Below, in pieces: positions 9,268-38,636 of a stretch of 64,000 nucleotides of DNA. Made by a program: the position numbers and the translations under genes. Below the pieces are notes generated by a model. It had not been told where the DNA came from, did not search any database, and saw only the letters and a list, made by a program, of their open reading frames with translations. This DNA is from Thermoanaerobaculia bacterium (GTDB lineage: Bacteria > Acidobacteriota > Thermoanaerobaculia > Gp7-AA8). The stretch's first letter is position 1. Each line of letters starts with the position of its first letter. Location of the stretch: positions 4,916-68,915 of the forward strand of contig JAXDGL010000014.1 of the NCBI GenBank assembly GCA_034665065.1. The letters are read 5' to 3'.

Positions 9268-10350
9268 ATGTCCCAGTACGCGATCCCGCTCCTCCTCCTC
9301 TTCATCGCCAGCGCGCTGACCGCGTTCATCACGACCGGCGCCGTAAAGAAAATTGCGGAGGAAGTGGGCGCGATCGACCGGCCGAATGAGCGCAAGCTGC
9401 ACGCGATGGCCACGCCGCGAATGGGTGGTCTGGCCATCATCTTCGGTTTCGGCTTTCCGCTGATGCTTCTCGCTGCCAATGGCCACGCGGCGGAGCTGGT
9501 GTCGAAGAATCTGACCTACCTCTTCGCCGTCCTCGCCAGCGGCTCGTTGATCATTGGACTCGGCGTTTACGACGATCTTCTCGGCTCCGACGCTCCGAAA
9601 AAGTTCTTCGTTCAGACCGCTTCCGCCATCATTCTCGTCAGCTTCGGATTTCAGTTTTCATCGGTCTCCTTCGCCAGTTACAACATTCAACTTGGAGTTT
9701 TCGGACCGGTCATGTCGGTGATTTGGATCGTCGGCGTGATCAACGCCGTCAACTTCATCGACGGCATCGACTCACTGGCAACTTTGGTGGCCATCACGAT
9801 CGCGATCGCCTTCGCCGTCATCGCCGTCATCCGCGTCGACGTCTTCTCGATCGTCATCATGACGGCACTGGCGGGAGCGCTGATCGGCTTCTATCCCTGG
9901 AACCGGCCGCCTGCCAAAATCTTCATGGGCGACAGCGGCAGCCTTTTCATCGGACTTCTGCTGGCAGCCTGCTCGATCGCACGCCCCATCAAGTCACCCA
10001 CCGCTCTGATCGTGGGTGGTCCGATGCTCGCGCTGGCCCTCCCCGTTCTCGACACACTCATCGTCATGAAACAGCGCTTCGGCGTGAGGTCCAACTTTCT
10101 GGAGCGAATCACGCGGATGTTCAACGCCGACCGGCGCCACTTCCATCACGTTCTCGTTAAGAAGTATGGAAGCATCGGCATGGCGATCCTCTCCATCTGG
10201 ATCATCACGCTGCTCTTCGCTCTATCCGCAGTGCTAACAGTAATCGACGATTTGAAGATCGCCGGGTATTCCGTCGGCATTCTCGGATTTGTGGCGATGA
10301 TTTTTCTTCGCTATTGGTTCCGTCGCAATCCGATCGAGCGGCAGGTCTGA
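9268..10350 (+). CDS. Polyprenyl-phosphate N-acetylhexosamine-1-phosphate transferase (WecA/MraY family); initiating enzyme
   Basis: Polytopic protein with MraY/WecA signature loops (NAVNFIDGIDSLA, FMGDSGSLFIG, HFHH). Confidence 0.85.
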   Translation: MSQYAIPLLLLFIASALTAFITTGAVKKIAEEVGAIDRPNERKLHAMATPRMGGLAIIFGFGFPLMLLAANGHAAELVSKNLTYLFAVLASGSLIIGLGVYDDLLGSDAPKKFFVQTASAIILVSFGFQFSSVSFASYNIQLGVFGPVMSVIWIVGVINAVNFIDGIDSLATLVAITIAIAFAVIAVIRVDVFSIVIMTALAGALIGFYPWNRPPAKIFMGDSGSLFIGLLLAACSIARPIKSPTALIVGGPMLALALPVLDTLIVMKQRFGVRSNFLERITRMFNADRRHFHHVLVKKYGSIGMAILSIWIITLLFALSAVLTVIDDLKIAGYSVGILGFVAMIFLRYWFRRNPIERQV

Positions 10351-10354
10351 CGCC

Positions 10355-12115
10355 ATGTGCGGAATCGCCGCCATCTTCGCTTACGGAAGCAACGCAGCTC
10401 CCGCCGATGAGGGCGAGATCGGTGCCATTACGGAGCGGATGCGGCCTCGGGGTCCCGACGCCGGCGGCACCTGGATCTCGCCCGACCGACGCGTCGCACT
10501 CGGATCGCGCCGGCTGGCCATCATCGATCTGAGCGACGAGGGCACGCAGCCAATGACGGATGTTGACGGCGACCTGCGCATCGTCTTCAACGGCGAGATC
10601 TACAACCACCGTGAGTTGCGCGCACGTCTGGACCGCCTCGGCGCACGATTTCATTCGATGACCGATACCGAGGTTTTGCTGCAGTTGTACCGGCACGACG
10701 GCGCGGCGATGGTGGAGCTTCTGCGGGGCATGTTTGCATTCGCGATCTGGGATCCTCAGCGCCGCCGCATGTTCGTCGCGCGCGATCCTTACGGCATCAA
10801 GCCGCTGTACATCGCCGACGACGGCGCGACCCTTCGCGCGGCATCGACCATCAAGGCGTTGCTGGCAGGCGGACAGATCTCGCGCGCGAAGGACCCTGCC
10901 GGCGTGGCCGGATTCTGGTTGATGGGAACGGTGCCTGAGCCGTACACGATCTTCCGCGCCATTCGCGCCGTTGAAGCGGGCACGTCGTTTTTCGTCGGCG
11001 AGCAGGGCGTCCATGACGTGCGGCGTTACTACTCGATCGCCGCCACGCTCGGACGCGGAGTACGCGACGAGCCTGCGGCGCGTCTCGTCGATCCTCACGT
11101 GCTCGTGCGGGAACTGGTCACCGATTCTCTGCGCCATCACCTCATCGCCGACGTTCCTGTCGGCGCTTTTCTTTCCTCCGGCATCGACTCGACCGCGCTC
11201 GTCGCGTTGGCGACGGAAGCGGCAGGCCATCCGCCCAAGACGGTGACGCTGCGATTCGACGAGTTCCATGGCCGCAACGTCGACGAAGCGCCTCTGGCCG
11301 ACCGCTTCGCGCAAAGCATCGGCTCCGATCACATCACCCGCCTCGTGACGCGCGACGAGTTCATCACGGACTTGCCGCGCCTCTTCGATGCCATGGATCA
11401 ACCGACCATCGACGGCACCAACACCTGGTTCGTCAGCAAGGCAGCCGCGGAGCGCGGATTGAAAGTCGCCATCTCCGGCCTCGGCGGCGATGAGCTTTTC
11501 GGCAGCTATCCCTCGTTTCGCGACCTGCCGCGCATCGTCGCCGCTGCGCGCGTCCCGTTTGCTGCGTCCGCCGCGAACTACCTGACGCGCAACCCGAAAG
11601 CAAAAGCCGTCGCGCGCTACGGAAGCACCTGGGCCGGCGCCTATCTTCTCAAGCGCGGCCTCTACCTGCCTGAGGATCTGCCTTCGCTGATGGGGGCGGA
11701 AGACGCGGAAGAGGGATTGGAAAGCCTGTCGATCGTCGAGCACATCGCCGCCGCGATCGAGCCCGATCCTGGATCGGCGTTCGGCCGCGTCTCCGCACTC
11801 GAAGCATCGTTGTACATGCGCAACCAACTGCTTCGCGACACCGACTGGGCAAGCATGGCGCACTCGCTCGAAGTGCGGACCCCGCTCGTCGATGCCACGC
11901 TTCTCCGCCAGATTGCACCGTTGCTTCTCGTCGAAAAAGAACGTTGTAAGCAGCACTTCGCGAACAGCCCACGCAATCCGCTCCCGGATTGGCTCAGCAC
12001 ACGCGGCAAAACCGGCTTCACCGTTCCGCTCGCGGAATGGATGGATCTTTCCGCTGACGGCACAACGACGCGCATGCGAAGCTGGGCGCGCGTGGTCATG
12101 GAGCGCTGGTCGTGA
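10355..12115 (+). CDS. asnB: Asparagine synthetase B-type glutamine amidotransferase; in a glycan locus this is probably a sugar-acid amidotransferase
   Basis: N-terminal MCGIAAIF nucleophile Cys and the SGGIDSTALVALA PP-loop are present. Confidence 0.85.
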   Translation: MCGIAAIFAYGSNAAPADEGEIGAITERMRPRGPDAGGTWISPDRRVALGSRRLAIIDLSDEGTQPMTDVDGDLRIVFNGEIYNHRELRARLDRLGARFHSMTDTEVLLQLYRHDGAAMVELLRGMFAFAIWDPQRRRMFVARDPYGIKPLYIADDGATLRAASTIKALLAGGQISRAKDPAGVAGFWLMGTVPEPYTIFRAIRAVEAGTSFFVGEQGVHDVRRYYSIAATLGRGVRDEPAARLVDPHVLVRELVTDSLRHHLIADVPVGAFLSSGIDSTALVALATEAAGHPPKTVTLRFDEFHGRNVDEAPLADRFAQSIGSDHITRLVTRDEFITDLPRLFDAMDQPTIDGTNTWFVSKAAAERGLKVAISGLGGDELFGSYPSFRDLPRIVAAARVPFAASAANYLTRNPKAKAVARYGSTWAGAYLLKRGLYLPEDLPSLMGAEDAEEGLESLSIVEHIAAAIEPDPGSAFGRVSALEASLYMRNQLLRDTDWASMAHSLEVRTPLVDATLLRQIAPLLLVEKERCKQHFANSPRNPLPDWLSTRGKTGFTVPLAEWMDLSADGTTTRMRSWARVVMERWS

Positions 12116-13188
12116 GGATCCTCTACCTCGGTACCGACTCCTTTGGCGGCTACGGCGGGATTGCGCTTTTCAATCGTGAATTCATCAGCGCCCTGACGTC
12201 GCATCCAGCATGCGAGGAGGTTGTCGTACTTCCGCGGCTGATCCCCCGCCAGGTCGAGACCCTGCCGGACAAAGTGACCTTCCTGTCCGGCGCTGCAAAG
12301 GGAAAGATCGCCTACCTTCGTGCGCTCCGCACGGCGGTGCGCGGTGACTCATTCGATCTCGTCATTTGTGGTCACGTGAATCTTCTGCCCGTCGCGCGGC
12401 TCACCGGGCAGCGGCCACTCCTCATCACTCACGGCATCGATGCCTGGAAGCGGCTGCGCGATCCCCTCTCGAACCATCTCGTACATAAGATTCGCGGACT
12501 GGTTTCGGTCAGCGATCTGACGAGAGAGCGATTCATCGCCTGGTCCCATTTCACAGGCACGACCTTCGTATTGCCAAACGCCGTTCGCGTTGGGAACTAC
12601 GGCATTCGCCCGAAGCGTCAGGATCTCATCGATCGCTGGTCGCTGCAGAACAAGCGCGTGCTCCTCACGCTTGGCAGAATCGTCGGCACCGAGCGCTACA
12701 AAGGATTCGATGAAGTACTGGACGCGATGCCCGCCCTTCTTCCGAAGTTTCCCGACGTGGTCTACGTGATCGCAGGAAGCGGTAGTGACATCCCTCGTCT
12801 GAAAGCTCGCGCGGAAGACCTCGGCGTCGCCGATTCGGTTCGTTTTACCGGCTTTATCGCGGAAGATGAGAAACCCCATCTCTACAACCTGGCGGACGTC
12901 TATGTGATGCCGAGCCGCGGCGAGGGCTTTGGGTTCGTTTTTCTGGAGGCGATGGCGTGCGGCGTCCCTGTCATCGCCAGCAGTCTCGACGGCGGACGCG
13001 AGGCTCTCCGGAATGGCCTGTTGGGACAGCTGGTCGATCCTACCAATCCCGCGGAAATCCGCGTAGCGATCGGCGATGCGCTTCGCTCAGGCGGCACACG
13101 AGTGATTCCGGCCGGGCTCGAGTTCTTCAGTTATGAAAACTTTGAGCGCCGCACGTGCGCAATCATCGACGCTCTTGTGAAGGGATGA
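12112..13188 (+). CDS. Glycosyltransferase family 1 (GT4-type)
   Basis: E-x7-E motif (EGFGFVFLEAMACGVPVI). The start overlaps the asnB stop. Confidence 0.85.
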   Translation: MRILYLGTDSFGGYGGIALFNREFISALTSHPACEEVVVLPRLIPRQVETLPDKVTFLSGAAKGKIAYLRALRTAVRGDSFDLVICGHVNLLPVARLTGQRPLLITHGIDAWKRLRDPLSNHLVHKIRGLVSVSDLTRERFIAWSHFTGTTFVLPNAVRVGNYGIRPKRQDLIDRWSLQNKRVLLTLGRIVGTERYKGFDEVLDAMPALLPKFPDVVYVIAGSGSDIPRLKARAEDLGVADSVRFTGFIAEDEKPHLYNLADVYVMPSRGEGFGFVFLEAMACGVPVIASSLDGGREALRNGLLGQLVDPTNPAEIRVAIGDALRSGGTRVIPAGLEFFSYENFERRTCAIIDALVKG

Positions 13189-14159
13189 CCATGCCGTCTG
13201 TGAAAAAGGCCTTGATCTTCGGCGTCTCGGGCCAGGACGGCGCCTACCTGTCACAGCTTCTGCTGGATCGCGGATACGAAGTCCACGGCGTATCGCGCGA
13301 TGCAGAGTCGCAGTCCTTCCGCCGCCTCGCCGCTCTCGGCATCCGCGAACGCGTCATTACTCACTCCGCCGCCGCACGTGATTTCCGCGAGCTGCTGCAG
13401 TTGATCGACGGCATCCGTCCCGATGAGATTTACAACCTCGCCGGCCAGAGCTCTGTCGCGCTGTCGTTCTCACAGCCCGTCGAGACGATGGACAGCATCG
13501 CCCAGGCCACGCTCGTCATGCTCGAAGTCATCCGCTACCTCAAGCTTCCCGTGCGTCTCTACAACTCCGCGTCGAGCGAATGCTTCGGCGAGACGCCGCC
13601 CGGCCACGCCAGCGACGAAGCCACTCCTTTTTTTCCGCGCAGTCCGTACGCGATGGCAAAGGCCGCCGCGCATTGGACGACGGTTAATTACCGGGAGGCC
13701 TATGGTATTTACGCCTGCTCGGGAATTCTGTTCAATCACGAGTCGCCATTGCGGTCCGAGCGCTTTGTGACGAGAAAGATCTTCACTGCCGCGGCCGCGA
13801 TCGCCGCGGGCTCCGATCGCCGATTGAAACTCGGCCGCCTCGATGTGTGGCGCGATTGGGGCTATGCCGCTGAATATGTAGAAGCAATGTGGCGGATGCT
13901 GCAACTCGACGAGCCGCAAGACTTCGTCATCGCCACTGGCGAGAGTCACTCACTGGAAGAGTTAACTGCCGCCGCCTTCGCGCAGTTCGGCCTCGACTGG
14001 CGCGACCATGCCGACATCGACCCCAGACTCTTCCGCGCCTCTGAGATCACTTGCAGCCGCGGCAATCCCGACAAAGCGCGGCGCATACTCGGGTGGGAGG
14101 CGAAGACGAAGTTTGTAAGTCTCGTGAAACTGCTCGCCGATGCGGAACGAGCCGTTTAG
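13185..14159 (+). CDS. gmd: GDP-mannose 4,6-dehydratase
   Basis: N-terminus KKALIFGVSGQDGAYLSQLLLDRGYEVHG and a catalytic YAMAK(A) motif. The ATG at codon 11 of track ORF 13155 overlaps the upstream stop in an ATGA arrangement. Confidence 0.85.
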   Translation: MTMPSVKKALIFGVSGQDGAYLSQLLLDRGYEVHGVSRDAESQSFRRLAALGIRERVITHSAAARDFRELLQLIDGIRPDEIYNLAGQSSVALSFSQPVETMDSIAQATLVMLEVIRYLKLPVRLYNSASSECFGETPPGHASDEATPFFPRSPYAMAKAAAHWTTVNYREAYGIYACSGILFNHESPLRSERFVTRKIFTAAAAIAAGSDRRLKLGRLDVWRDWGYAAEYVEAMWRMLQLDEPQDFVIATGESHSLEELTAAAFAQFGLDWRDHADIDPRLFRASEITCSRGNPDKARRILGWEAKTKFVSLVKLLADAERAV

Positions 14160-14187
14160 AGGGTCACCGGCGAGACATTGTCTTCGA

Positions 14188-14236
14188 GACGCGGCAAAAC
14201 ACTCCTACTCCGTGTCTCCGCGTCTCCGCGTGATCG
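14188..14236 (+). other. Hairpin (GAGACGCGG ... CCGCGTCTC) between gmd and wzm; possible attenuator or weak terminator
   Basis: 9-bp perfect stem with a loop of about 27 nt and no downstream T-tract. An 8-nt tandem GTCTCCGC x2 is also present. Confidence 0.2.
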
Positions 14237-14281
14237 TTCCTCCGCCTCGCAAGGAAAGGGCACGATAAACTACCCGCCGCC

Positions 14282-15097
14282 TTGCACACGATCATCAAAC
14301 CGCGCCGCGGACTGGCACAGCTCGACCTTGCCGAGGTTTGGCAATACCGCGAGCTGCTCGGATTCCTGGCCTGGCGCGACATCGTCATCCGCTACAAGCA
14401 GACCACGATCGGCGTACTGTGGGCGTTTCTCCGGCCGTTCCTGACGATGGTGATCTTTACGGTCATCTTCGGGCGCATCGCCAAGCTGCCGTCGGAGGGC
14501 GTGCCGTACGCGGTGTTCAGCTTCACCGCGCTGCTTCCGTGGCAGTTTTTCTCGACGGCGTTCGCCGAGGCGGCGAATTCGATCGTGGGGAACGGACACA
14601 TGATCTCGAAGATCTACTTCCCGCGGCTCATCCTGCCGATGTCGTCGGTCGCTGTCGGCATCATCGACTTTCTCATCTCGTTCGTGATCCTGATTTTCAT
14701 CATGATCGGATACCACACGCCGGTCTCCGCACGCGTCGCGGCGCTGCCGCTCTTCTTCGCGCTCTGCGTCGTCTTCACGATGGGGCTCGGCATCGTCTTC
14801 GCGTCGCTCTACGTGCGGTTTCGCGACATGAGACATCTCATCCCCTTCCTCACGCAGTTCGGCATGTACGTGTCGCCGGTCATCTTCAGCAGCTCGAAGA
14901 TTCCGGGGAAGTGGCGCCTCCTCTATTCACTCAATCCAATGGTTGCTGTGATCGACGGCTTCCGCTGGTCTCTCCTCGGCACGAGCGAGTTGTACGTTCC
15001 GGGCATCGTGATGGGAACCGCAGTGTCGATCGTTCTGCTCGTCGCTGGCCTCTTCTATTTTAAGAAGACCGAGCGCGTGTTTGCGGACGTGATGTGA
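14282..15097 (+). CDS. wzm: ABC-2 type polysaccharide exporter permease (Wzm/KpsM/TagG family)
   Basis: About six TM helices and typical Wzm N-terminal sequence. TTG start. Confidence 0.85.
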   Translation: MHTIIKPRRGLAQLDLAEVWQYRELLGFLAWRDIVIRYKQTTIGVLWAFLRPFLTMVIFTVIFGRIAKLPSEGVPYAVFSFTALLPWQFFSTAFAEAANSIVGNGHMISKIYFPRLILPMSSVAVGIIDFLISFVILIFIMIGYHTPVSARVAALPLFFALCVVFTMGLGIVFASLYVRFRDMRHLIPFLTQFGMYVSPVIFSSSKIPGKWRLLYSLNPMVAVIDGFRWSLLGTSELYVPGIVMGTAVSIVLLVAGLFYFKKTERVFADVM

Positions 15098-16323
15098 TGA
15101 CGGACGCGATCGCTGCGCAGGGAGTGAGCAAGATGTATCGCCTCGGCGAGCATGCCGCGGCGTACAACCTGCTGCGCGAGCGGATCGCAGAAGCGATCAA
15201 ATCCCGATTCGGCAACGCCGAGGCAAAGCCGGAAGCGGAAGAGTTCTGGGCGTTGCGCGACGTCTCGTTCACGATCGGAAACGCCGAGGTGGTGGGTCTC
15301 ATCGGAAAAAACGGAGCGGGAAAATCGACGCTGCTGAAGATTCTCAGCCGCATCACCGAGCCGGCGGAGGGACGCATCGATCTCTACGGACGCGTTTCCA
15401 GTCTGCTCGAAGTCGGAATTGGTTTTCATCCCGAACTGAGTGGCCGCGACAACATCTATCTCAACGGCGCCATCCTCGGCATGTCGCGGCAGGAGATCCG
15501 CCGCAAGTTCGACGAGATCGCCGAGTTCGCGGAGATCTCAAAGTTTCTCGATACGCCGGTGAAGCGCTACTCGTCAGGAATGTACGTGCGGCTGGCATTC
15601 GCCGTCGCGGCGCACCTGGAGCCTGACATCCTCATCGTCGATGAAGTGCTCGCCGTCGGCGATTCCGCGTTTCAACAGAAGTGTCTCGGCAAGATGCGCG
15701 ACATCCGGTCGCGAGGACGATCGGTGATCGCGGTGAGCCACAACATGGCCACGATCGCGAACATCTGCGAGCGCGTGATCTGGCTGGAAGCAGGGCGCGT
15801 GAAGATGATCGGCCCGACGCAGGAGGTCGTGCATCAGTATCTATCCGAAGGAGTGGAGCAGGAGCTGAGTTGGGTTCCGCGACATCCCTCGAAGAGAGAA
15901 TTCGAGTACCACAGTGTCTCCGTTCTGCGCGGCGACACGCACGAGCCGTCGGATGCCATTCCTGGCGATGCACCGATCGATGTCGTCATGGACTTCTCGA
16001 TCGTCAGTCCGTTGTCGGATGGCCGCGTCGAGTTGCAGCTCGCAGACGAATACGGCGACCTGCTTTTCATCACCACCAGCGCGGATGCCGATCGGCAGAT
16101 GCATCACGCCTGGACGATCGGACGGCACACATTCACCTGCCACATTCCTCCGAATCTGCTGGCGCCAGGGCCTTATCGCATCTCGGTTTCGCATCCCTTT
16201 GGCGGCTACTCAACGATGCACGAGAACATCCTCTCGTTCCAGGTAACGGAGCAGAACAGTGTCGCCGCGATCGATGGGCGCGCGGGGAAAATCGCGCCGC
16301 GGCTGGATTGGTCGCGCGATTGA
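15094..16323 (+). CDS. wzt: ABC polysaccharide exporter ATPase (Wzt/TagH) with a C-terminal extension of about 150 aa, probably a glycan-terminus-binding module
   Basis: Walker A (GKNGAGKST), signature (YSSGM) and Walker B (ILIVDE) motifs, followed by an extra C-terminal domain. 4-nt overlap with wzm. Confidence 0.85.
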   Translation: MMTDAIAAQGVSKMYRLGEHAAAYNLLRERIAEAIKSRFGNAEAKPEAEEFWALRDVSFTIGNAEVVGLIGKNGAGKSTLLKILSRITEPAEGRIDLYGRVSSLLEVGIGFHPELSGRDNIYLNGAILGMSRQEIRRKFDEIAEFAEISKFLDTPVKRYSSGMYVRLAFAVAAHLEPDILIVDEVLAVGDSAFQQKCLGKMRDIRSRGRSVIAVSHNMATIANICERVIWLEAGRVKMIGPTQEVVHQYLSEGVEQELSWVPRHPSKREFEYHSVSVLRGDTHEPSDAIPGDAPIDVVMDFSIVSPLSDGRVELQLADEYGDLLFITTSADADRQMHHAWTIGRHTFTCHIPPNLLAPGPYRISVSHPFGGYSTMHENILSFQVTEQNSVAAIDGRAGKIAPRLDWSRD

Positions 16324-16340
16324 ACCCGACGCGCCGGCTG

Positions 16341-17594
16341 ATGTTCGTCACGCAAACCCATACCGTATGGGGCGGGATCGAATGGTGGGTTCATCATCTC
16401 TCGCAGCGTCTGATCGAGCGCGGATGGGAAGTGTTCGCAGGACTGGCGCAAGGTGCTCGATTCAGCAATCCGCGGCCGTATGCGGCCGCGCATTCTCACC
16501 TCCGGCCAGTGATCATGGATGGACGCGCCGGCACCGAATCGGCGCGCCTCGCTGCGGTCCTGAGCGCTTTGCGGCGCGTCAAACCCGACGTCGTCATCCC
16601 CGTTGCGATCGGGGCCACTTTTGACGCGATGCGCAGCTTCGACGCCACATTCATCGTTCCCGTGCTGTCGCTCCATGAGGGAACCCTGGCGGATGTTGTC
16701 GAATATCAGGAGGAGATCGATCTGGCGGTTCCGAACTCGCGATTGCTGGAGCGCTTTCTCCGACGCCAGCTCGACCCGGCACGCGTGCGCTACATTCGTC
16801 AGGGAACGCCGCTCGCGACGACAACCCGCTCGCAGCGCACTCCGCGCCTGCGCGCGGCGGTCGTCTGCCGGCTGGAAGAATCGACGAAGCGCGTGCTCGA
16901 TCTGCCGCGGCTGGCAGAGCATATCGGCGACAACATCGAGCTCCACGTTTTCGGCGACGGTCCGGATCGGGAAGCACTGGAGAAGGCATTAAACAATCGT
17001 GCGATCATGCATGGCTATCGTTCAACCGAGGAACTTTATCGGGAGGCCTATCCCAACCTCGATGTGCTGCTGCACTTTTCGCCGGCCGAGGGAAGTCCCA
17101 ACGTCATCTATGAAGCGATGCAGAATGGAGTCGTGCCAGTCTCCTCGCGATTCATGGGATTGGCTTCAGAGGAAATCCTGCGCGACGGTGAGAATGCGCT
17201 GCTGTTTGACATCGGTGACACCGCCGCCGCCGCGCGCCATCTAAGCACACTGGCGAACGACCGCGATGCGTTGGAGCGATTGAGCGACGCGGCGCGGAAC
17301 GCGAACGCCTCCTTCACGGACGACGATATGTACGATGCCTGGATTGACGCGATCGAGACGACGCCTCACCGTCCTCGGGCATTGCAGCCGGAGGTATTGC
17401 CGCACGCGGGCCGGCTCGATCGAATTGTGCCGCGGTCCGCAGCCAATTTCCTTCGCCGTGTGGCCGGGAGATCATTCCCTCACGCAACGGGTTGGGAAGA
17501 GTGGCCGGGCTCTCAGCAGAACAATGAAGCAATCACCGCGCGCGTGTCCGGTTTGCTGGCGGAGATCGAGAGGAGCGCGAAGCATGATCGATGA
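16341..17594 (+). CDS. Glycosyltransferase family 1-like
   Basis: C-terminal GT4 signature (AEGSPNVIYEAMQNGVVPV). The upstream part of track ORF 15681 overlaps wzt and is not coding. Start taken at MFVTQTH; a TTGA-overlapping TTG 21 nt upstream is an alternative. Confidence 0.7.
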   Translation: MFVTQTHTVWGGIEWWVHHLSQRLIERGWEVFAGLAQGARFSNPRPYAAAHSHLRPVIMDGRAGTESARLAAVLSALRRVKPDVVIPVAIGATFDAMRSFDATFIVPVLSLHEGTLADVVEYQEEIDLAVPNSRLLERFLRRQLDPARVRYIRQGTPLATTTRSQRTPRLRAAVVCRLEESTKRVLDLPRLAEHIGDNIELHVFGDGPDREALEKALNNRAIMHGYRSTEELYREAYPNLDVLLHFSPAEGSPNVIYEAMQNGVVPVSSRFMGLASEEILRDGENALLFDIGDTAAAARHLSTLANDRDALERLSDAARNANASFTDDDMYDAWIDAIETTPHRPRALQPEVLPHAGRLDRIVPRSAANFLRRVAGRSFPHATGWEEWPGSQQNNEAITARVSGLLAEIERSAKHDR

Positions 17595-18492
17595 GAAGCA
17601 CCAGGGTCAGTACCTCTACGTCGACGAACAGCTCCACATTCTGCACGGCGAGAAAGCGGCCGAGGCGTTGCGCGGTCAGTCCGATGCTGCCTGGCTCGAT
17701 CCACGCGATGGCGTCGTCCGAGTCCCGAAACAGCGTTGGCAGCAAGCGCAACGCTACGAACGAGACACGTGGATGGTTGCGAATGTAGACGCCACCGACG
17801 ACCGCAACCTGGCGCACAGCCACGGGTTCGGCGGCTACGCGGCTCTTCAAGCGAGATCATTCCAGCATGCCATCGAGCTGGGGTGCGGGCCGTTCACGAA
17901 TCTTCGGTTGATCGGTCAGCATTGCACGATCGCGCGATGTTCGCTTCTCGACCCGTTGATCGAGGAGTATCTGAAACATCCCCATTGCACCTACAACCGA
18001 AACGCGCTGCGCGTATCGGAGAGGCCGCTCAGCCGGACGCTTGGGCGTACGCTGCCCGGACGCGCGCTCCGGCGCGCTCTTCGGGTAATCGCTCCAGGCA
18101 CTCTCATGGAACACATCCCTGTCGCGGAGCTCTTGGCCCTCCCGATCGAAGAGATGCCGGCACGATCCACCTACGATCTCGTGGTAATGCTGAACGTTCT
18201 CGAGCACTGCTACGACGCCACGGTGATTTTCGACAAAATCCTCTCCGTCCTGAATCCGGGAGGCCTTTTCGTTTTTCACGACAAGCTCTTCACCGCCGCC
18301 GAGGCCGAAGAGGATGTCCGCACACGCTTCGATGCCGGGCATCCCCTGCGTGTGGGGAGGACCGTCATCGATTCCTTTCTGGAGACAAACTTCGCCCCGC
18401 TCTTCGCGGAGCACGGCATCGTCGAGGATGGACACGACGACCATGACCTGAGCCGCGACGGGATCTACTTCATCGGCACGCGCAAGGGATGA
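17584..18492 (+). CDS. Class I SAM-dependent methyltransferase
   Basis: Motif I (IELGCGPF) and motif post-II (LNPGGLFVFHD). The start overlaps the upstream gene by 11 nt. Confidence 0.7.
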   Translation: MIDEKHQGQYLYVDEQLHILHGEKAAEALRGQSDAAWLDPRDGVVRVPKQRWQQAQRYERDTWMVANVDATDDRNLAHSHGFGGYAALQARSFQHAIELGCGPFTNLRLIGQHCTIARCSLLDPLIEEYLKHPHCTYNRNALRVSERPLSRTLGRTLPGRALRRALRVIAPGTLMEHIPVAELLALPIEEMPARSTYDLVVMLNVLEHCYDATVIFDKILSVLNPGGLFVFHDKLFTAAEAEEDVRTRFDAGHPLRVGRTVIDSFLETNFAPLFAEHGIVEDGHDDHDLSRDGIYFIGTRKG

Positions 18493-18505
18493 CAGAATAC
18501 CGTCC

Positions 18506-19621
18506 GTGAAGAATCCTCGCATCGCCATCGTCGTCACCACAATCTTCGAGCCCGCTTTCCTCGACGGCTACGTCGAGAACCTTCGCCGCTTTGGCCGCGA
18601 CGACGTCGCCATCATCGTCATCATCGACCGGAAAACTCCGGCGTCTGTCGCCAGCCGTTGCGCGCATTACGGACTGATCTGCCCAACGCTCGACGAACAG
18701 GAAGAGCTTCTGAAGCGATTTCCGTCGATGGCCGGGCGCATCCCGTACGACAGCGACAACCGGCGCAACATCGGATTCCTCATGGCGCTCGACCGCGGCG
18801 TTGAGCTGCTCATCAGCATCGACGATGACAACTACTGCCTCGACGATGTTGACTTCGTTGGCGAGCATCTCGCTGCCGGCACGACGATCGATCTGCCATC
18901 GACGGAAAGCGGCGACGGATGGATCAACATCTGCTCGCTGCTGCATTCGTCGACGCAGGATCCCATTTTCCCGCGCGGCTTTCCCTACTACGCGCGGCGT
19001 CATGCGCCGGCGTTGCGCGAGGAGAGCGAATCTCCGGCGCGTGTGGCCATCAATGCCGGTCTCTGGTTGAGCGATCCTGATGTCGATGCCATGACCCGCC
19101 TCGTGCAAGCGCCACACATCGCGTCGTCCGATGGCCGCTCGATCCGGCTCGGCACCGGCACCTGGACACCGATCAATACCCAGAACACCGCCGTCGTCCG
19201 CGACGCCATCGCCGCTTACTACTACGTCCGCATGGGCTTCTCGCTCGGCGGCCTGAAGATCGACCGCTACGGCGACATCCTCAGCGGCTATCTCATTCAA
19301 AAGTGCGTGAAGACGCGCGGCGAAGCAATCCGCATCGGCTCACCGATCGCCGATCATCGCCGCACGCCGCACAATCTCTTCAAGGATCTCTACCACGAGC
19401 TGGCCGGAATGGTCATCCTCGAAGATCTGCTGCCTTGGTTCGTCGAGCTGAAGATCGGATCAGGCTCATACAGCGAGATGTTTGCCGAGGTCGCTGATGC
19501 GCTGGAATCGAAGAGCGCGTCGATGCGCGGGTTCGTATGGGACGACGGCGGCCGCGATTTTCTCGCCGATACCGCGGCGAACATGCGCGCATGGATCGAG
19601 GCGGTGCGGGTGATCGGATGA
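18506..19621 (+). CDS. GT75 / reversibly-glycosylated-polypeptide (UDP-arabinopyranose mutase)-like protein
   Basis: Blocks recalled from plant RGP/UAM are present: IDDDNYCL (compare TIDDDCFVAKD), RGFPYYAR (compare RGYPFSLR), GLWLSDPDVDAMTRLVQAP (compare GLWLNIPDYDAPTQLVKP), RYGDILSGYLIQKCVKTRG...HRRTPHNLFKDLYHE, and C-terminal LADTAANMRAWIEA. Confidence 0.7.
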   Translation: MKNPRIAIVVTTIFEPAFLDGYVENLRRFGRDDVAIIVIIDRKTPASVASRCAHYGLICPTLDEQEELLKRFPSMAGRIPYDSDNRRNIGFLMALDRGVELLISIDDDNYCLDDVDFVGEHLAAGTTIDLPSTESGDGWINICSLLHSSTQDPIFPRGFPYYARRHAPALREESESPARVAINAGLWLSDPDVDAMTRLVQAPHIASSDGRSIRLGTGTWTPINTQNTAVVRDAIAAYYYVRMGFSLGGLKIDRYGDILSGYLIQKCVKTRGEAIRIGSPIADHRRTPHNLFKDLYHELAGMVILEDLLPWFVELKIGSGSYSEMFAEVADALESKSASMRGFVWDDGGRDFLADTAANMRAWIEAVRVIG

Positions 19622-20553
19622 TGGTGTCGGAACGGCCGCTCGTTTCGATCGTCATCCCCAGCTTCAATCAGGGCCGCTACATTCGCGAGACGATCGATTC
19701 GACGCTGTCGCAGGATTACCGGCCGATCGAAATCCTGGTGCTCGACGGCGCCTCGAAAGACGAGACGGTCGATGTGCTGCAGTCCTACGATGGCACTCCC
19801 GAGCTGCAATGGTGGTCGGAGCGCGACCGCGGCGTCGTCGATGCCGTGAACAAAGGCCTGACCCTCGCGCGCGGCGAAATCGTCGCCATCCAGAGCTCGG
19901 ATGACGTCTACCTTCCTGGCGCAGTCTCGGCCGCCGTCGCCGCCTTTCGCGAGAATCCCGCCCTTGGCCTCGTCTACGGCGACGTCGAGTACATCGATGC
20001 GCAATCGCGCCCCAGCGGGCGAACGCATCTCTCCCCGTTCCAGTTGCACGACTACGTCGGGAAGCTGACGTACATCCCGCAGCCGGCGGCATTCTTCACG
20101 GCCGAGGCGTTTCGTGCGGCGGGCGGATGGCGGGAAGACATCAGCTACGCCGCCGATGCCGAGTTCTATCTCCGCATCGTGATGCAATTCCCGGCGAAGA
20201 AGATGGACCGCGTCGTCGCTCGTTATCGATACCACGACGAGCAGCGCGACAAGGCGTCGCAACGCGTCCAGCGCGATTGGCGCACAGCGATCGAGCCGCT
20301 GATGCGATCCAACGACCGCCGTCTGCGCCGTTACGCGCAAAGCGGCATCGACATGTCGACGATCCGCTATACGCCGGATGAACAGTGGATCAAACGGACG
20401 CTGGCCGCGTATCACGCACTGCTGATCAATCCAGCGGTCATCCGCAGTCCCGACTTCCGCGCCACGCGCGATCTGCTGCCCGGCCGCTATCCGATCTGGC
20501 GGCTGCTGTCGAAGATCAAGAAGCTGCTTGGCCTCGCGCCGCGCCGGTCCTGA
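19618..20553 (+). CDS. Glycosyltransferase family 2
   Basis: LVSIVIPSFNQGRYIRETIDS...LVLDGASKDETV and a DxD motif. ATGA overlap with the upstream gene. Confidence 0.8.
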   Translation: MMVSERPLVSIVIPSFNQGRYIRETIDSTLSQDYRPIEILVLDGASKDETVDVLQSYDGTPELQWWSERDRGVVDAVNKGLTLARGEIVAIQSSDDVYLPGAVSAAVAAFRENPALGLVYGDVEYIDAQSRPSGRTHLSPFQLHDYVGKLTYIPQPAAFFTAEAFRAAGGWREDISYAADAEFYLRIVMQFPAKKMDRVVARYRYHDEQRDKASQRVQRDWRTAIEPLMRSNDRRLRRYAQSGIDMSTIRYTPDEQWIKRTLAAYHALLINPAVIRSPDFRATRDLLPGRYPIWRLLSKIKKLLGLAPRRS

Positions 20554-21363
20554 CTACTGCGCCGTCTCGTTTTGAGCTCGGGCCGCGGCATCGGCGCGCT
20601 TGTAATCGCCGCGGCTGAAGTACTTCTCGAGCCACACGTAAAGGATGATGAAGAGGTAGCGGCTTCCCATCTCTTTGATCTTCAACTTGGCGATGCCACT
20701 GCGCCGGTTCCGCCATGTGATCGGGATCGTCGTCCATGAAAAGCCGCGGACGATCGCTTTGAGCGGAACCTCGACGGTGAGATTGAAGTGGGGCGCGATG
20801 AATGGCCGGCAGCCGTCGATGACCGTGCGCCGGTATGCTTTGAATGCGTTGGTCGTGTCGTTCAGTGAGATGCCGAAGAGCAGCCGCACCATCAGATTGG
20901 CGAGCCGGTTCAATCGGAGCTTGAGCCACGGGTAATCGATGACGCCACCGCCGGACACGAAGCGGCTTCCGAACACGCACTCCCACCCTTGATTCAACGT
21001 TCGCCAGTAACGGACGGCATCGCGGCAATCGTCGCTCTCGTCGGCCATGACGATCACGACCGCGTCTCCGGTCATCGCATCGAGACCACGGATGATGGCG
21101 CGGCCGAAACCATGATCGCCGTCGTTCCGGATCGGCCGCAGCTCCGGCAACCTGCTGCTCAGATCCTCGAGAATGCTCCACGTGCGATCGCTGCTTCCGT
21201 CATCGACGACGATGATCTCGTGGTCGATGCCGTTGAGACGCATCTCGAGATGGAAGTGCTCGACCGTAGACTCGATGCAACCCTCTTCATCGCGCGCCGG
21301 GATCACAATCGAGAGCTTGCGCAGTGGAGGAAGGTCCGCATCCGGCGTCGAGTGATTTTTCAT
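20554..21363 (-). CDS. Glycosyltransferase family 2 (DPM1/ArnC-like polyprenyl-phosphate sugar transferase type)
   Basis: KLSIVIPARDEEGCI...IIVVDDGSSDRT. The start is taken at the internal MKNHS Met; the upstream 70 codons of the track ORF are S/R-rich noise. Confidence 0.75.
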   Translation of the reverse strand: MKNHSTPDADLPPLRKLSIVIPARDEEGCIESTVEHFHLEMRLNGIDHEIIVVDDGSSDRTWSILEDLSSRLPELRPIRNDGDHGFGRAIIRGLDAMTGDAVVIVMADESDDCRDAVRYWRTLNQGWECVFGSRFVSGGGVIDYPWLKLRLNRLANLMVRLLFGISLNDTTNAFKAYRRTVIDGCRPFIAPHFNLTVEVPLKAIVRGFSWTTIPITWRNRRSGIAKLKIKEMGSRYLFIILYVWLEKYFSRGDYKRADAAARAQNETAQ

Positions 21364-21370
21364 ATTCTCT

Positions 21371-22441
21371 TCAGCCGCCTGCGGAGAGCTCGAGCCAGTC
21401 GGGATGGCTCTGCGCATGGACGAGGATCTCCTCGAGGATATCGGACGCGGTGCGCTGCGGCGTCCAGTTCCAATGTGCCTTCGCTTCACCGGCATCGAGC
21501 ACGACCCACGGAAGATCGAACGCTCTTGGCCGCGGATCGGAGCCGACGTTGCGCGGCCCCATGCGCGCCTCACACCACGCGCTCAGTTGCCGCAACGATA
21601 TCGCGGAGCTTTTTCCGCCCGAGATGTTGATGATCCGAGGAGCGCGAACGCCCGCTTCGGAAAGCTGGCGATCGAGAAGCAGTACCAGATCGGCGGGATG
21701 GAGACAGTCTCGAACCTGATGGCCCTGCCCATCAAATCCGATATAGCGGAGTGGACGGCCGCGCAGCCAACTGTGGATCCAGTACGAGAAGATGCCTTGA
21801 TCGGCGCGCCCGAATTGACCCGCGCCCGCCATGACACCGCAGCGGTTGATCCACACCGGAAAATCAAACGCCGAGCCATATTCGAGCGCGAGTGCTTCGC
21901 TGGCCAGTTTCGTCGCTCCGTAAAGGGACACCGGCGCGCTCGTCGAAAACGTCTCACTGATTCCGTCGCTCGAAAGCCCCGGCGGCAAGGGCGCGCCTTG
22001 ATCGGGCTCGAAGGCATCACCGGCGATGCGGACTGGAAGCGCGGCCAGTGGAGGAATCGAGTAGACGCGGCTCGTGCTCAACATGACGAAGGCCGCGGAG
22101 GTTCGCCTGCAGTATTCGAGAATGTTCAGCGTGCCGAGTAGATTGTGCTCGACGATTTGGCGGCTCGATGTGCGCCCGTCGATTCCGGCCAGGATGCTCG
22201 GCAACGCAGCGGCATCGATGACGGCGTCGACGCGCGGAAGTCCCTCGAAATCGCTGGCCATTCGCACGTCGGCGTGGATTACTTCGACGCCGAGGCGGCG
22301 GAGCGCCACTCGGTTCGTTTCGCTGCCGGCTCTGACGAGACTGTCGACGCCGATGATCTCGTGCTGGCTGCCGGCCTCGCGCCACGCCTTCGCGATCGCC
22401 GACCCGGCGAATCCGCAGATGCCAGTGATGAGAATCTTCAC
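21371..22441 (-). CDS. NAD-dependent sugar epimerase/dehydratase (extended SDR)
   Basis: GTG start at [14 protein letters not shown] and a catalytic YGATKLASE motif. GTGA overlap with the upstream epimerase gene. Confidence 0.8.
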
Positions 22442-25217: not shown

Positions 25218-25247
25218 GAAATCGATCTGCTGCACGGTCTGATTGCG

Positions 25248-26840: not shown

Positions 26841-26941
26841 CGCGTGATTATGTCAGAACAGAAAAAACAGCTCGCGCCATCGTTTGATATTCGGAAGCGG
26901 GGACGGCGCGAAATCCGATTCACGTCAGTTCGCGCGTTCGC

Positions 26942-30216: not shown

Positions 30217-30253
30217 GCGCGGGAACGCGTCCGCACTCCGGGATCGAAGACTG

Positions 30254-38507: not shown

Positions 38508-38636
38508 CGCGGCTGTCTGTTCCCGATCTGGTTCCGTCGTTGCGGCGCGATCGTCATCCCGCCGATTATCGCAGGTCTGCTGCGCGCAAACCCGGCAAGC
38601 GATGAATCGCACGTCGCGATCGTTGCCCTACGACCG

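Follow-up and report, generated by a model that had tools for sequence, protein, structure and literature searches.

A gene of the RGP family lies in a bacterial glycan locus, and the question is which sugar nucleotide its product handles and for which glycan. An earlier note, made from the sequence alone, had described the product as a homologue of the plant-type UDP-arabinopyranose mutases. We analysed the whole 64-kb stretch of DNA that carries the gene (the window). Furanoses of bacterial capsules and O-antigens are usually attributed to flavin-dependent UGM-type mutases (e.g. PMC12369002), and the bacterial GT75 mutases characterised to date are just two, both from actinomycete antibiotic pathways (PMC9937993). 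In our best reading, the gene (hereafter the mutase gene) supplies GDP-L-hexofuranose for a surface glycan that is exported by an ABC transporter.

The ORF ran from a GTG start to a TGA stop at exactly the boundaries given in Table 1, encoded 371 aa, and had a GC3 of 0.79, versus ~0.62 for the window overall. The gene was evidently real, and all four sequence blocks named in the earlier note were present in it: DDD (residues 106-108), PRGFPY (156-161), GLWLSDPDVDAMTRLV (185-200) and WIEAV (363-367). Pfam analysis gave a significant full-length match to RGP (PF03214; E 2.2e-11; 44 bits, gathering cut-off 23.8), spanning residues 6-366 of the protein and positions 6-336 of the 342-position model, and matched no competing family. 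The NCBIfam scan of the protein matched no family, indicating that this clade lies outside the curated bacterial models. The AF2 model (pLDDT 87.9, pTM 0.90) fitted the GT75 fold, in which a GT-A Rossmann-like N-terminal region is followed by a core particular to GT75 and by a helical C-terminal region (TM 0.91 to MtdL, 0.66-0.71 to rice UAM2). The next structural matches were generic GT-A enzymes with TM ~0.42, and the 50 best matches listed for the structure included no UGM entry. The sequence and the model together confirm that the protein is a member of the GT75/RGP family.

The closest characterised relative was MtdL, a Mn2+-dependent GDP-L-galactopyranose/GDP-L-fucopyranose mutase from the A201A nucleoside-antibiotic pathway of Marinactinospora thermotolerans (PDB 7XPR, 7XPS, 7XPT, 7XPU, 7YUA). 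The match covered residues 6-370 (E 3.5e-88, 299 bits), identity was 43.7% over 359 aligned positions, and the AF2 model superposed on the MtdL crystal structures with TM 0.91-0.92 and rmsd 2.0-2.1 Å. Rice UAM2 (8cid) was also matched directly, by sequence (E 2.6e-4, 23 bits, partial alignment 125-323) and by predicted structure (TM 0.66/0.71, Foldseek E 4e-15, 19% identity, rmsd 8.4 Å). The resemblance to plant proteins was thus statistically real and the fold class was the same; however, the mutase was ~275 bits nearer to MtdL than to a plant UAM, and plant UAMs were not its closest relatives.

The functional residues of MtdL were compared with those of the mutase. The residues essential in MtdL (D87, D109, R159, D195, Q229, R257 and D260) were all kept, as D84, D106, R157, D192, Q226, R254 and D257. 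The MtdL Mn2+ ligands D111 and H287 (mutase D108 and H284) and loop-A residues R289 and H292 (mutase R286 and H289) were identical, and all residues that hydrogen-bond O2-O5 of L-Fucp in the MtdL crystal structure were conserved. The divalent-cation site as a whole (D106-D107-D108 plus H284, aligned with MtdL D109-D111 plus H287) was invariant in 78 homologues. R157, in the PRGFPY block, aligned with MtdL R159; the conserved GT75 arginine (OsUAM1 R158, MtdL R159) is autoglycosylated and acts as the nucleophile (PMC9937993).

All 20 functional positions examined were invariant or nearly invariant over the 78 homologues, which came from many phyla. This invariance indicates selection on catalysis. 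It also bears on the suggestion in the earlier note of a non-canonical self-glycosylating glycosyltransferase. Mutase activity is absent from some GT75 members, and the protein could in principle be an RGP-like protein that has no catalytic activity or only glycosylates itself, and that serves in structure or regulation, similar to plant class-2 RGPs such as AtRGP5. However, the inactivity of AtRGP5 is attributed to loss of the His287-equivalent Mn2+ ligand and of the β-phosphate Arg257 (PMC9937993), and the mutase keeps both (H284 and R254). The self-glycosylating reading is therefore not favoured, and we consider an inactive protein most improbable.

The base-selectivity residues point to GDP. 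MtdL T13, D40 and S86, which govern GDP selectivity, corresponded to mutase T11, D41 and S83. In MtdL, S86D abolishes GDP binding and D87S inactivates the enzyme; in active plant RGPs the first and third selectivity positions (MtdL T13 and S86) are occupied by Pro and Asp, and active AtRGP1-3 have Ser at the D87 equivalent (PMC9937993). These UDP-type residues were not found in the mutase, which has T11, K43, S83 and D84 at the equivalents of MtdL 13, 42, 86 and 87. Because of its closeness to MtdL and its GDP-type residues, the mutase is unlikely to act on UDP-L-arabinose.

We considered the possibility of a plant-type UDP-L-arabinopyranose mutase whose product, UDP-L-Araf, would go into an arabinofuranose-containing polysaccharide. 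Plant UAM/RGP proteins (OsUAM1, AtRGP1-3, rice UAM2 8CID) share its CAZy and Pfam family, overall fold class, catalytic Arg and DxD motif, and perform a divalent-cation-dependent, flavin-independent ring contraction that resembles its predicted chemistry; some substrate promiscuity occurs among GT75 enzymes. They are, however, UDP-specific and serve arabinan synthesis in eukaryotic cell walls. Identity to rice UAM2 was 19%, against 44% for MtdL; Thr and Ser occupied the base-selectivity positions, as in GDP-specific MtdL, and D84 was Asp, not Ser. No recognisable UDP-glucose dehydrogenase, UDP-xylose synthase or UDP-xylose 4-epimerase gene was present in the annotated window, and homologues with an identical active site adjoined GDP-mannose 3,5-epimerase (GME). 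This possibility is very unlikely. Of the earlier description, GT75/RGP membership stands and the plant type does not; its prediction of a furanosyl residue fits if read as a furanose other than L-arabinofuranose.

Two pocket residues differed from MtdL: N42, which contributes to base selectivity in MtdL, was replaced by K43, and S228 by T225. In MtdL, N42D weakens GDP binding only ~6-fold, and S228A costs 79% of activity (PMC9937993). K43 was usual in the environmental clade (74 of 78 homologues), and the active-site pattern that includes K43 and T225 was invariant or nearly so across the 78. The MtdL tetramer interface was partly not conserved (e.g. E341 replaced by A338). Judged from sequence and model, the gene most likely encodes a manganese-dependent GDP-L-fucose/GDP-L-galactose ring-contracting mutase.

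The surroundings of the gene differed from those of both characterised bacterial enzymes. MtdL belongs to an antibiotic cluster in an actinomycete, whereas the mutase gene was located in a Wzm/Wzt surface-polysaccharide operon in a Gram-negative-type Acidobacteriota MAG, from an uncultured soil organism. Hyg20, the other characterised bacterial GT75 member, is a GDP-L-fucopyranose mutase in the hygromycin A pathway of Streptomyces hygroscopicus. Its substrate GDP-L-Fuc comes via the GMD route and the mutase operon has GMD, a likeness by description; the context is a secondary metabolite for Hyg20 and an envelope glycan for the mutase.

Annotation of the window genes confirmed the glycan-locus context (Table 1). 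The mutase gene was the ninth of ten genes in an operon that extends from WecA to a GT2 gene and includes GDP-mannose 4,6-dehydratase and Wzm/Wzt. The set expected for an ABC-transporter-dependent O-polysaccharide (Wzm, Wzt, a WecA-like initiator, and GT4 and GT2 genes) was present in this one operon. The Wzt_C match at the C-terminus of Wzt was sub-threshold (E 4.6e-4; 20.6 bits vs 30.4). The gene order GT4b-methyltransferase-mutase recurred in homologue loci L002, L003, L017, L006 and L011. Sugar O-methylation or chain termination is a possible role of the methyltransferase. The GT7C-like family, whose representative in locus L028 matched Pfam Glyco_transf_7C and Glycos_transf_2, accompanied the mutase and GT2a in 22 of 80 homologue loci.

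Table 1. Coordinates of the mutase gene and of neighbouring features in the 64-kb window.
Feature	Position	Strand	Basis or remark
WecA/MraY-type polyprenyl-phosphate HexNAc-1-P transferase, initiating enzyme, first operon gene	9268..10350	+	Pfam Glycos_transf_4 129 bits; NCBIfam WecA 1.5e-30; syntenic in relatives
AsnB-like glutamine amidotransferase, conserved in locus	10355..12115	+	Pfam Asn_synthase + GATase_7; NCBIfam; synteny
GT4a, GT-B (group 1) glycosyltransferase	12112..13188	+	Pfam Glycos_transf_1 126 bits; synteny
GMD, GDP-mannose 4,6-dehydratase	13155..14159	+	Pfam GDP_Man_Dehyd 344 bits; PDB 1n7g 2.3e-94, 1rpn 2.4e-88
Wzm, ABC-2 permease of polysaccharide exporter	14282..15097	+	Pfam ABC2_membrane; 95% identical in homologue locus L001
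Wzt, ABC ATPase, weak Wzt_C-like C-terminal domain	15094..16323	+	Pfam ABC_tran; NCBIfam galactan/teichoic-acid export ATPases ~1e-58
GT4b, GT-B glycosyltransferase	16365..17594	+	Pfam Glyco_trans_1_4; synteny; start approximate (mechanical ORF runs further upstream)
SAM-dependent methyltransferase, directly upstream of mutase	17584..18492	+	Pfam Methyltransf_23/11/12; ATG 17584 start inferred from homologue lengths
Mutase, GT75 (RGP-family), MtdL/Hyg20-type NDP-pyranose/furanose mutase (predicted)	18506..19621	+	ORF, Pfam RGP, MtdL homology, residue map, AF2 model
GT2a, soluble GT2 glycosyltransferase	19618..20553	+	Pfam Glycos_transf_2
GT2b, polyprenyl-phosphate glycosyltransferase-like GT2, convergent with and abutting GT2a	20554..21573	-	NCBIfam AglJ, Dol-P-hexose transferase, ArnC, PgfS ~1e-14
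SDR1, extended SDR, CDP-tyvelose-2-epimerase-like	21371-22513	-	Pfam Epimerase; PDB 9rl0 3.9e-17, 1orr 7e-16
SDR2, extended SDR, CDP-tyvelose-2-epimerase-like	22438-23517	-	Pfam Epimerase; PDB 9rl0 9.5e-36, 1orr 3.4e-34
Membrane ORFs of 8-10 TM, four polytopic, beside GT2b	23664-30519		Putative GT-C type
GT7C-like GT-A glycosyltransferase	30254..31243	-	tblastn 37% identity, 213 bits to cluster representative L028
Wzy_C/O-antigen-ligase-family gene	61893-63302		Window annotation

No gene for a FADH2-dependent UGM-type mutase was detected in the annotated window. The FADH2 mutases (UGM/Glf; e.g. Campylobacter jejuni HS41.17, a CDP-D-fucopyranose/CDP-6-deoxy-L-altropyranose mutase) carry out the same net conversion of NDP-pyranose to NDP-furanose and feed furanoses to bacterial surface polysaccharides, the role proposed here for the mutase. 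They have an unrelated fold and cofactor; their nucleophile is flavin N5, in contrast to the arginine plus Mn2+ of a GT75 mutase. A link to the CDP-fucofuranose/6-deoxy-altrofuranose synthesis of C. jejuni HS:41, raised by the tyvelose-epimerase-like SDRs, was rejected because HS:41 uses a FADH2 mutase unrelated to GT75. A low-GC patch at 42-49 kb was considered as an RNA operon and rejected; Rfam gave no match anywhere in the window.

Apart from GMD, no enzyme of a GDP-sugar pathway could be recognised in the operon. GMD occupied the same position in four close Thermoanaerobaculia loci and accompanied the mutase in only 5/80 loci, and may therefore serve another sugar of the repeat. Neither fcl (GDP-L-fucose synthase) nor GME was found in the 64-kb window by Pfam and NCBIfam scans of ~50 ORFs or by tblastn that included a true GME query; in this the locus is unlike that of MtdL. 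The immediate GDP-sugar precursor is thus not accounted for locally, and the predicted substrate is given as either GDP-L-fucose or GDP-L-galactose. Elsewhere, a true GME was encoded within 10 kb of the mutase gene in 10 of 80 homologue loci, which reproduces the order known from the A201A pathway, GME followed by the mutase. The assignment as true GME rested on catalytic motifs and on a further PDB search, which refined a heterogeneous cluster of "GME-like" neighbours. That cluster could not be taken as uniform GME: its representative, L075, was ambiguous, matching GME and generic GalE entries alike. The Nevskiales-type SDRs near the mutase belonged to a subfamily other than GME.

SDR1 and SDR2 were paralogous (29% identical) and were considered as the missing Fcl or GME. 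Both candidates were rejected. Their best solved relatives were CDP-tyvelose 2-epimerases, their scores fell well short of all NCBIfam equivalog cutoffs, their matches did not include NF047922 (the GDP-L-fucose synthase model, which does match GME-like SDRs), and they were not conserved in related loci. The SDRs also suggest a different substrate: the mutase might act on another GMD-derived 6-deoxyhexose shaped by SDR1/SDR2 (e.g. C2-epimerised), to give a furanose other than L-Fucf or L-Galf. GMD stands in the operon without a canonical 4-reductase or 3,5-epimerase, two extended SDRs lie 1.7-3.9 kb downstream, and pocket residues K43 and T225 are unlike MtdL, all of which agrees with such a substrate. 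However, SDR1 and SDR2 were missing from almost all related loci (present in only 5/80 and 6/80, respectively, at low identity), the pocket including K43 and T225 was unchanged in loci with a true GME, and the residues that contact O2-O5 of L-Fucp in MtdL were conserved. We regard this alternative as quite unlikely.

The gene directly downstream, GT2a, overlapped the mutase gene in an ATGA arrangement, its ATG (19618-19620) lying over the mutase TGA (19619-19621). The mutase-GT2a pair was syntenic and co-diverging (Spearman rho 0.89). In the 71 loci used for distances, a GT2a orthologue started ≤250 nt from the mutase stop in 15 and lay within 3.5 kb in 24; adjacency of GT2a is a clade-level feature, not a family-wide one. 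The best PDB matches of GT2a were the chondroitin synthase K4CP (6.9e-28) and the GDP-L-Fuc-dependent GT2 WrtF (2.4e-20). WrtF (Rhizobium tropici) is a GT2-family GDP-β-L-fucose fucosyltransferase of an ABC-transporter-dependent O-polysaccharide. The two proteins share the guanine-binding Asp66 motif ExDRG[IV]xDAxNKG, Asp167 and an aromatic residue at 191; in both, a small residue stands in place of the first Asp of DxD (SSDD in GT2a, GADD in WrtF); and both are encoded in Wzm/Wzt-type loci that also carry gmd. On the other hand, WrtF His142/Asn143 are Gln/Pro in GT2a, the C-terminal domains could not be aligned, GT2a scored higher against UDP-dependent K4CP than against WrtF, and the donor of WrtF is L-Fucp whereas a furanose is predicted for GT2a. 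GT2a was considered as a GlfT2-like galactofuranosyltransferase and rejected, since GlfT2 was not among its PDB sequence matches. GT2a is the best candidate consumer of the GDP-furanose.

The best explanation of these findings, to which we assign a probability of roughly 0.75, is that the gene encodes a GT75 GDP-L-hexopyranose mutase of the MtdL/Hyg20 type, and that L-Fucf or L-Galf is incorporated into a WecA-started, Wzm/Wzt-exported polysaccharide by a glycosyltransferase, most likely GT2a. The mutase would hold Mn2+ by Asp108 and His284 and clamp the GDP diphosphate by Gln226, Arg254, Arg286 and His289. The substrate bound would be a GDP-β-L-hexopyranose of L-galacto configuration (GDP-L-fucose or GDP-L-galactose). 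As proposed for MtdL, Arg157, deprotonated by Asp257, would attack C1 and displace GDP, giving a transient arginine-sugar adduct. Ring opening, re-closure of O4 on C1 and re-attack by GDP would then release GDP-L-hexofuranose. Use by a glycosyltransferase would draw off this thermodynamically disfavoured donor. That enzyme is most likely GT2a, coupled to the mutase in translation, and would add an L-fucofuranosyl or L-galactofuranosyl residue to the polysaccharide. The WecA-like enzyme would begin the chain on polyprenyl phosphate; after elongation in the cytoplasm, Wzm/Wzt would export it.

The furanose donor might instead be consumed by GT2b. The mutase activity would then be as proposed above; however, the DPM1/ArnC-like GT2b would transfer the GDP-furanose to polyprenyl phosphate for periplasmic use by GT-C enzymes, in the manner of mycobacterial decaprenyl-phospho-arabinofuranose. 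GT2b matched models of polyprenyl-phosphate glycosyltransferases and was homologous (E 8e-18) to a small GT2 encoded directly before the mutase in Verrucomicrobia and Terriglobia cassettes, which were flanked by GT87 and PIG-V-type GT-C proteins above Pfam cutoffs. Four polytopic membrane ORFs adjoin GT2b in the window, one with a weak GT87 match (E 0.009). Against this, that match was below threshold, identity between GT2b and the small GT2 of the Verrucomicrobia loci was just 24%, and GT2b is encoded on the other strand, together with SDR1/SDR2, in a distinct transcription unit that is not conserved in the closest relatives, whereas GT2a is the invariant, translationally coupled partner in the mutase clade. 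As the main outlet of the donor in this locus, the GT2b route appears unlikely.

The mutase is a known kind of enzyme in an undescribed biological context, and its homologues are widespread. The earlier note had called the family uncommon in bacteria; this is fair in absolute terms (2,120 of 1.84 billion 50%-identity cluster representatives matched the mutase at E≤1e-3), but understates the spread, as confirmed loci in GTDB species representatives number at least 145 and span many phyla. The homologues whose active site is identical likewise come from many phyla and are almost all in MAGs; among the 80 loci, Fontimonas sp. SYSU GA230001 (locus L037) is apparently the one cultured carrier. In the literature searched we found no report of L-fucofuranose or L-galactofuranose in bacterial surface glycans, and no survey of bacterial GT75 beyond the MtdL structural paper.

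We tentatively propose, as a possibility with somewhat less than an even chance, that the mutase gene exemplifies a large, undescribed use of GT75: a flavin-independent GDP-L-hexofuranose pathway for L-Galf/L-Fucf envelope glycans in Acidobacteriota, Planctomycetota, Verrucomicrobiota, Nevskiales, CPR and other phyla. The pathway would come in at least two architectures. In one, a coupled GT2 acts in the cytoplasm in Wzm/Wzt loci, as in the window; in the other, a cassette of GME, mutase and polyprenyl-phosphate glycosyltransferase would make a lipid-linked L-galactofuranose donor for GT-C (GT87/PIG-V-like) enzymes, comparable to mycobacterial decaprenyl-phospho-arabinofuranose. Both routes might operate in the window. 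If the mutase works as predicted, L-fucofuranose or L-galactofuranose would be a surface polysaccharide component in abundant, poorly cultured soil phyla, and arginine/Mn2+ ring contraction, instead of being a peculiarity of plants and secondary metabolism, would be a mainstream tool of envelope biosynthesis. For making scarce GDP-furanose donors, a diverse set of enzymes would be at hand in this clade.

In practical terms, a specific annotation could be given to thousands of homologues. At E≤1e-5 the mutase had homologues in 3,079 90%-identity clusters, mostly nameless or labelled "hypothetical protein". The same label was carried by a 100%-identical protein in public data, from a Thermoanaerobaculia (Acidobacteriota) MAG.

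The earlier note had placed a gene for a plant-type reversibly glycosylated polypeptide (RGP; GT75) at 18506..19621 (+), and an ORF of 371 aa, with start codon GTG and stop codon TGA, was found there. Its GC3 was 0.79 relative to a window average of ~0.62, as expected of a real gene in this genome. All four sequence blocks that the note had named were present in the translation: DDD (residues 106-108), PRGFPY (156-161), GLWLSDPDVDAMTRLV (185-200), and WIEAV (363-367). Likeness to the RGP family was confirmed by a significant, full-length match to Pfam PF03214 (E 2.2e-11, 44 bits, gathering score 23.8; protein 6-366, model 6-336 of 342). The Pfam search of the protein revealed no other family, and no NCBIfam model matched. 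The same protein (100% identity) has already been deposited from a Thermoanaerobaculia (Acidobacteriota) MAG, where it is annotated "hypothetical protein".

A sequence search of solved structures returned 7XPR, 7YUA, 7XPU, and 8HL8 (deposited as "Transglycosylse") at E ~1e-88 and 299 bits over residues 6-370; rice UAM2 (8CID) was matched over a partial stretch only (E 2.6e-4, 23 bits). The four entries are MtdL of Marinactinospora thermotolerans, a GT75 enzyme of the A201A antibiotic pathway that converts GDP-L-galactopyranose to GDP-L-galactofuranose, also interconverts GDP-L-fucopyranose and GDP-L-fucofuranose, and uses Mn2+, not flavin (PMC9937993). The window protein was 43.7% identical to MtdL over 359 aligned positions. 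An AlphaFold2 model of it, built from 16 homologues (mean pLDDT 87.9, pTM 0.90), superposed on the MtdL crystal structures with TM 0.91-0.92 and rmsd 2.0-2.1 Å. The next match was rice UAM2 (TM 0.66/0.71, rmsd 8.4 Å, 19% identity), followed by generic GT-A enzymes (TM ~0.42).

Residues known from MtdL crystal structures and mutagenesis were transferred to the window protein by HMMER alignment (window = MtdL throughout). The Mn2+ ligands (D108 = D111, H284 = H287), the remainder of the DDD motif, the diphosphate clamps (Q226 = Q229, R254 = R257, R286 = R289, H289 = H292), the proposed general base (D257 = D260), and the proposed nucleophile (R157 = R159), whose equivalent is the autoglycosylated arginine of plant RGPs, were all conserved. 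So were three further positions where mutation abolishes MtdL activity (D84 = D87, D106 = D109, D192 = D195). The His and β-phosphate Arg whose loss explains the inactivity of AtRGP5 (PMC9937993) were both retained. At the positions proposed to set base preference, the window protein was of the GDP type (T11 = T13, D41 = D40, S83 = S86). In active plant RGPs, by contrast, the residue equivalent to MtdL-13 is Pro, those equivalent to MtdL-42 and MtdL-86 are Asp, and that equivalent to MtdL-87 is Ser; in MtdL itself, the S86D exchange eliminates GDP binding, and D87S leaves the enzyme inactive (PMC9937993). The pocket differed from that of MtdL at only two positions (MtdL N42 to K43, S228 to T225). 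When 78 homologues, drawn from 80 genomes, were aligned, 17 of 20 mapped positions showed no change or a change in one sequence only, position 83 was Ser or Thr throughout, and Lys at 43 (74/78) and Thr at 225 (73/78) were the norm of this environmental clade.

By all testable criteria of sequence and modelled structure, the window protein is a predicted GT75 enzyme of the MtdL/Hyg20 subtype. The family and the furanose idea of the earlier note were thus supported; its plant-type subtype and UDP-arabinopyranose were not, because MtdL is far closer and the features specific to the plant mutases are lacking. Nor is the protein related to the flavin-dependent mutases from which known bacterial capsules and O-antigens obtain their furanoses, and no gene for a flavin-type UGM was found anywhere in the 64-kb window. 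The type of enzyme is therefore already known. What is new is its context, a surface-polysaccharide export operon in Acidobacteriota, whereas MtdL belongs to an actinomycete antibiotic cluster. New, too, are the wide spread of the uncharacterised clade and the partners conserved with it. We found neither a survey of bacterial GT75 genes nor a report of bacterial surface glycans containing L-fucofuranose or L-galactofuranose in the literature, the coverage of which was incomplete, so that both are absence of evidence only.

The mutase is gene 9 of 10 in a tightly packed operon extending from 9268 to 20553 (+). Its TGA (19619-19621) overlaps the in-frame ATG (19618-19620) of the downstream gene, GT2a, as ATGA, a typical arrangement for translational coupling. 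GT2a encodes a soluble GT2. The guanine-binding Asp66 motif of WrtF, a structurally characterised GDP-β-L-fucose-dependent GT2 of a rhizobial Wzm/Wzt O-antigen, is also found in GT2a, and both lack the first Asp of DxD. However, His142/Asn143 of WrtF are not kept, and the UDP-dependent K4CP scores better against GT2a than WrtF does. Because of these two differences, we only infer that the donor of GT2a may be a GDP-sugar.

Features of the window and type-C cassettes of related loci (L numbers denote homologous mutase loci from other GTDB genomes)
Feature	Coordinates	Strand	Description
Operon gene 1		+	WecA/MraY-type initiating phosphoglycosyltransferase
Operon gene 2		+	AsnB-like amidotransferase
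Operon gene 3		+	GT4 glycosyltransferase
Operon gene 4		+	GDP-mannose 4,6-dehydratase (GMD); PDB 1n7g at 2e-94
Operon gene 5		+	Wzm permease
Operon gene 6		+	Wzt ATPase
Operon gene 7		+	second GT4
Operon gene 8		+	SAM methyltransferase
Operon gene 9	18506..19621	+	mutase
Operon gene 10	19618..20553	+	GT2 (GT2a)
GT2b	20554..21573	-	polyprenyl-phosphate-glycosyltransferase-like GT2, co-oriented with SDR1/SDR2
SDR1 + SDR2	21371-23517	-	tandem extended SDRs, 29% mutual identity; best solved relative CDP-tyvelose 2-epimerase
Four polytopic ORFs	23664-30519		consecutive, large (517, 530, 630, 562 aa); 8-10 predicted TM segments each
GT7C-like glycosyltransferase	30254-31243
FkbH-like protein	31443-33278		sub-threshold Pfam match, 19.6 bits vs cutoff 27
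SDR	33920-34675
MBOAT O-acyltransferase	34675-36114
Methyltransferases	37062-37934 and 51158-52051
Hexapeptide acyltransferase	37953-38612
15-TM protein	38884-40869
DegT-type aminotransferase	41000-42169
GT1 and GT2 genes	49316-57796 and 59574-60704		several
Carbamoyltransferase	57802-59889
Wzy_C/O-antigen-ligase family protein	61893-63302
Type-C cassettes	L065:6297-9279; L066:1057-4030; L071:9116-13435; L056:9216-12247; L045:1997-4708; L046:9213-12185

The window protein matched 3,079 clusters of 90% identity at E<=1e-5. When the representatives of 1.84 billion clusters of 50% identity were searched exhaustively with phmmer, 2,120 matched at E<=1e-3, 1,007 at 1e-10, and 233 at 1e-30. A GTDB scan with one genome per species confirmed 145 loci; the 80 that were kept, nearly all from MAGs, represent Acidobacteriota, Planctomycetota, Nevskiales and other Proteobacteria, Verrucomicrobiota, CPR lineages, Actinomycetota, Gemmatimonadota, and others. 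Clustering of all ORFs within 10 kb of the mutase revealed three recurring architectures. Architecture A, to which the window locus belongs, is coupled to GT2a and was seen in Thermoanaerobaculia, in many Planctomycetota, and in a single beta-proteobacterium, often also with a GT7C-like GT and Wzm/Wzt. The distance from the mutase stop to the start of a GT2a orthologue was no more than 250 nt in 15/71 loci; in 24/71 the orthologue lay within 3.5 kb. The identities of mutase and GT2a co-varied across loci (Spearman rho 0.89). The closest relatives of the window locus retain the order WecA-AsnB-GT4-(GMD)-Wzm-Wzt-(GT4-MT)-mutase-GT2a. Architecture B, of the Nevskiales type, combines the mutase with TylF-type O-methyltransferases, an acyltransferase, and a non-canonical SDR.

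Architecture C, of the lipid-carrier type, groups three genes into a cassette: those for a small polyprenyl-phosphate-GT-like GT2, for the mutase, and for an SDR. It was found in Chthoniobacterales (L065, L066, L071), another Verrucomicrobia genome (L056), and Terriglobia/Bryobacteraceae MAGs (L045, L046). The GT2 precedes the mutase and a GDP-mannose 3,5-epimerase (GME) follows it; L071 has one additional ORF between mutase and GME, and the GT2 gene of L046 runs on the other strand. The SDR of L065 is a true GME: its PDB matches at <=1e-30 were all GMEs (best 1.6e-93), and it keeps the two catalytic residues, Cys145 and Lys217. The SDRs of L066, L067, L069, L071, and L056 were 78-92% identical to it. 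GDP-L-galactose is the MtdL substrate in the A201A pathway, and the GME-mutase loci repeat that logic. This pairing, with a true GME no more than 10 kb from the mutase in 10/80 loci, links the environmental clade, which shares the active site of the window protein, to GDP-L-galacto-configured sugars. A second, divergent paralogue of the mutase, which shares 30% identity with the window protein, was observed at L066:4826-5857, ~1.8 kb downstream of the primary mutase.

In Nevskiales and some Actinomycetota (L015, L016, L021, L022, L030, L075; e.g. L075:16483-17517), the mutase is linked to a second SDR subfamily, only 26-31% identical to true GME; in Nevskiales this subfamily occurs together with TylF-type O-methyltransferases and an acyltransferase. 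The two members aligned (L075, L055) keep Cys145, and Lys217 is replaced by His or another residue. This subfamily may be a variant GDP-sugar epimerase.

We considered which sugar the window enzyme would use. The GMD of the operon points, by analogy with Hyg20, to a 6-deoxy route and GDP-L-fucose, to which we assign a rough probability of 45%; however, the 64-kb window contains no fcl (GDP-L-fucose synthase) gene, and GMD lies beside the mutase in only 5/80 loci. GDP-L-galactose, a serious though lesser candidate, is indicated by the GME genes that lie near the mutase in other clades, but no GME was found across the window. Another GDP-sugar appears rather unlikely.

In the mechanism adopted from that proposed for MtdL, Mn2+ held by D108 and H284 would neutralise the GDP diphosphate, and R157, activated by D257, would attack C1 and expel GDP to give an arginine-glycosyl intermediate. 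The pyranose ring would then open, O4 would close onto C1, and GDP would return to yield the GDP-furanose. The equilibrium is expected to lie on the pyranose side, by analogy with other NDP-pyranose/furanose pairs (as stated in the literature for a CDP-sugar pair), and a consuming transferase would thus be needed. The best candidate is GT2a, which is ATGA-coupled and syntenic. The polymer would be built on the WecA-primed lipid and then exported via Wzm/Wzt.

A second possible fate is that GT2b transfers the furanose to a lipid carrier, from which GT-C-like membrane proteins use it. This is suggested by the type-C cassettes, four of which (L065, L071, L056, L045) are flanked by 7-9-TM proteins above the Pfam cutoff for GT87 or PIG-V-type mannosyltransferase; in the window, however, GT2b is only 24% identical to the cassette GT2, and polytopic ORF 25248-26840 gave only a weak GT87 match (E 0.009). 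The cassettes themselves suggest that GT-C enzymes use L-galactofuranose from a lipid-linked donor comparable to the decaprenyl-phospho-arabinofuranose of mycobacteria. A family-wide reading that includes such donors is tentative. For the window locus, consumption by GT2a is the preferred reading.

GT2b and the two paralogous CDP-tyvelose-2-epimerase-like SDRs, which are not conserved in related mutase loci, form a minus-strand unit convergent with and abutting the operon. The stop codons of GT2a and GT2b are directly adjacent at 20553/20554, with zero intergenic space, so that a conventional bidirectional terminator would not fit between the units. The four polytopic ORFs lie between the minus-strand unit and the GT7C-like GT in a region of strong positive AT skew (0.20-0.30). 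None has a Pfam match above threshold; they may be GT-C-type glycosyltransferases or polymerases. Nearly all of the window from ~9000 to 63300 is one glycan-biosynthesis island. Within it, the segment 42000-49300, which gave no Rfam match, has a GC content of 0.54-0.58 (vs ~0.62) and ORFs with weak GC3 bias, and may have been acquired horizontally.
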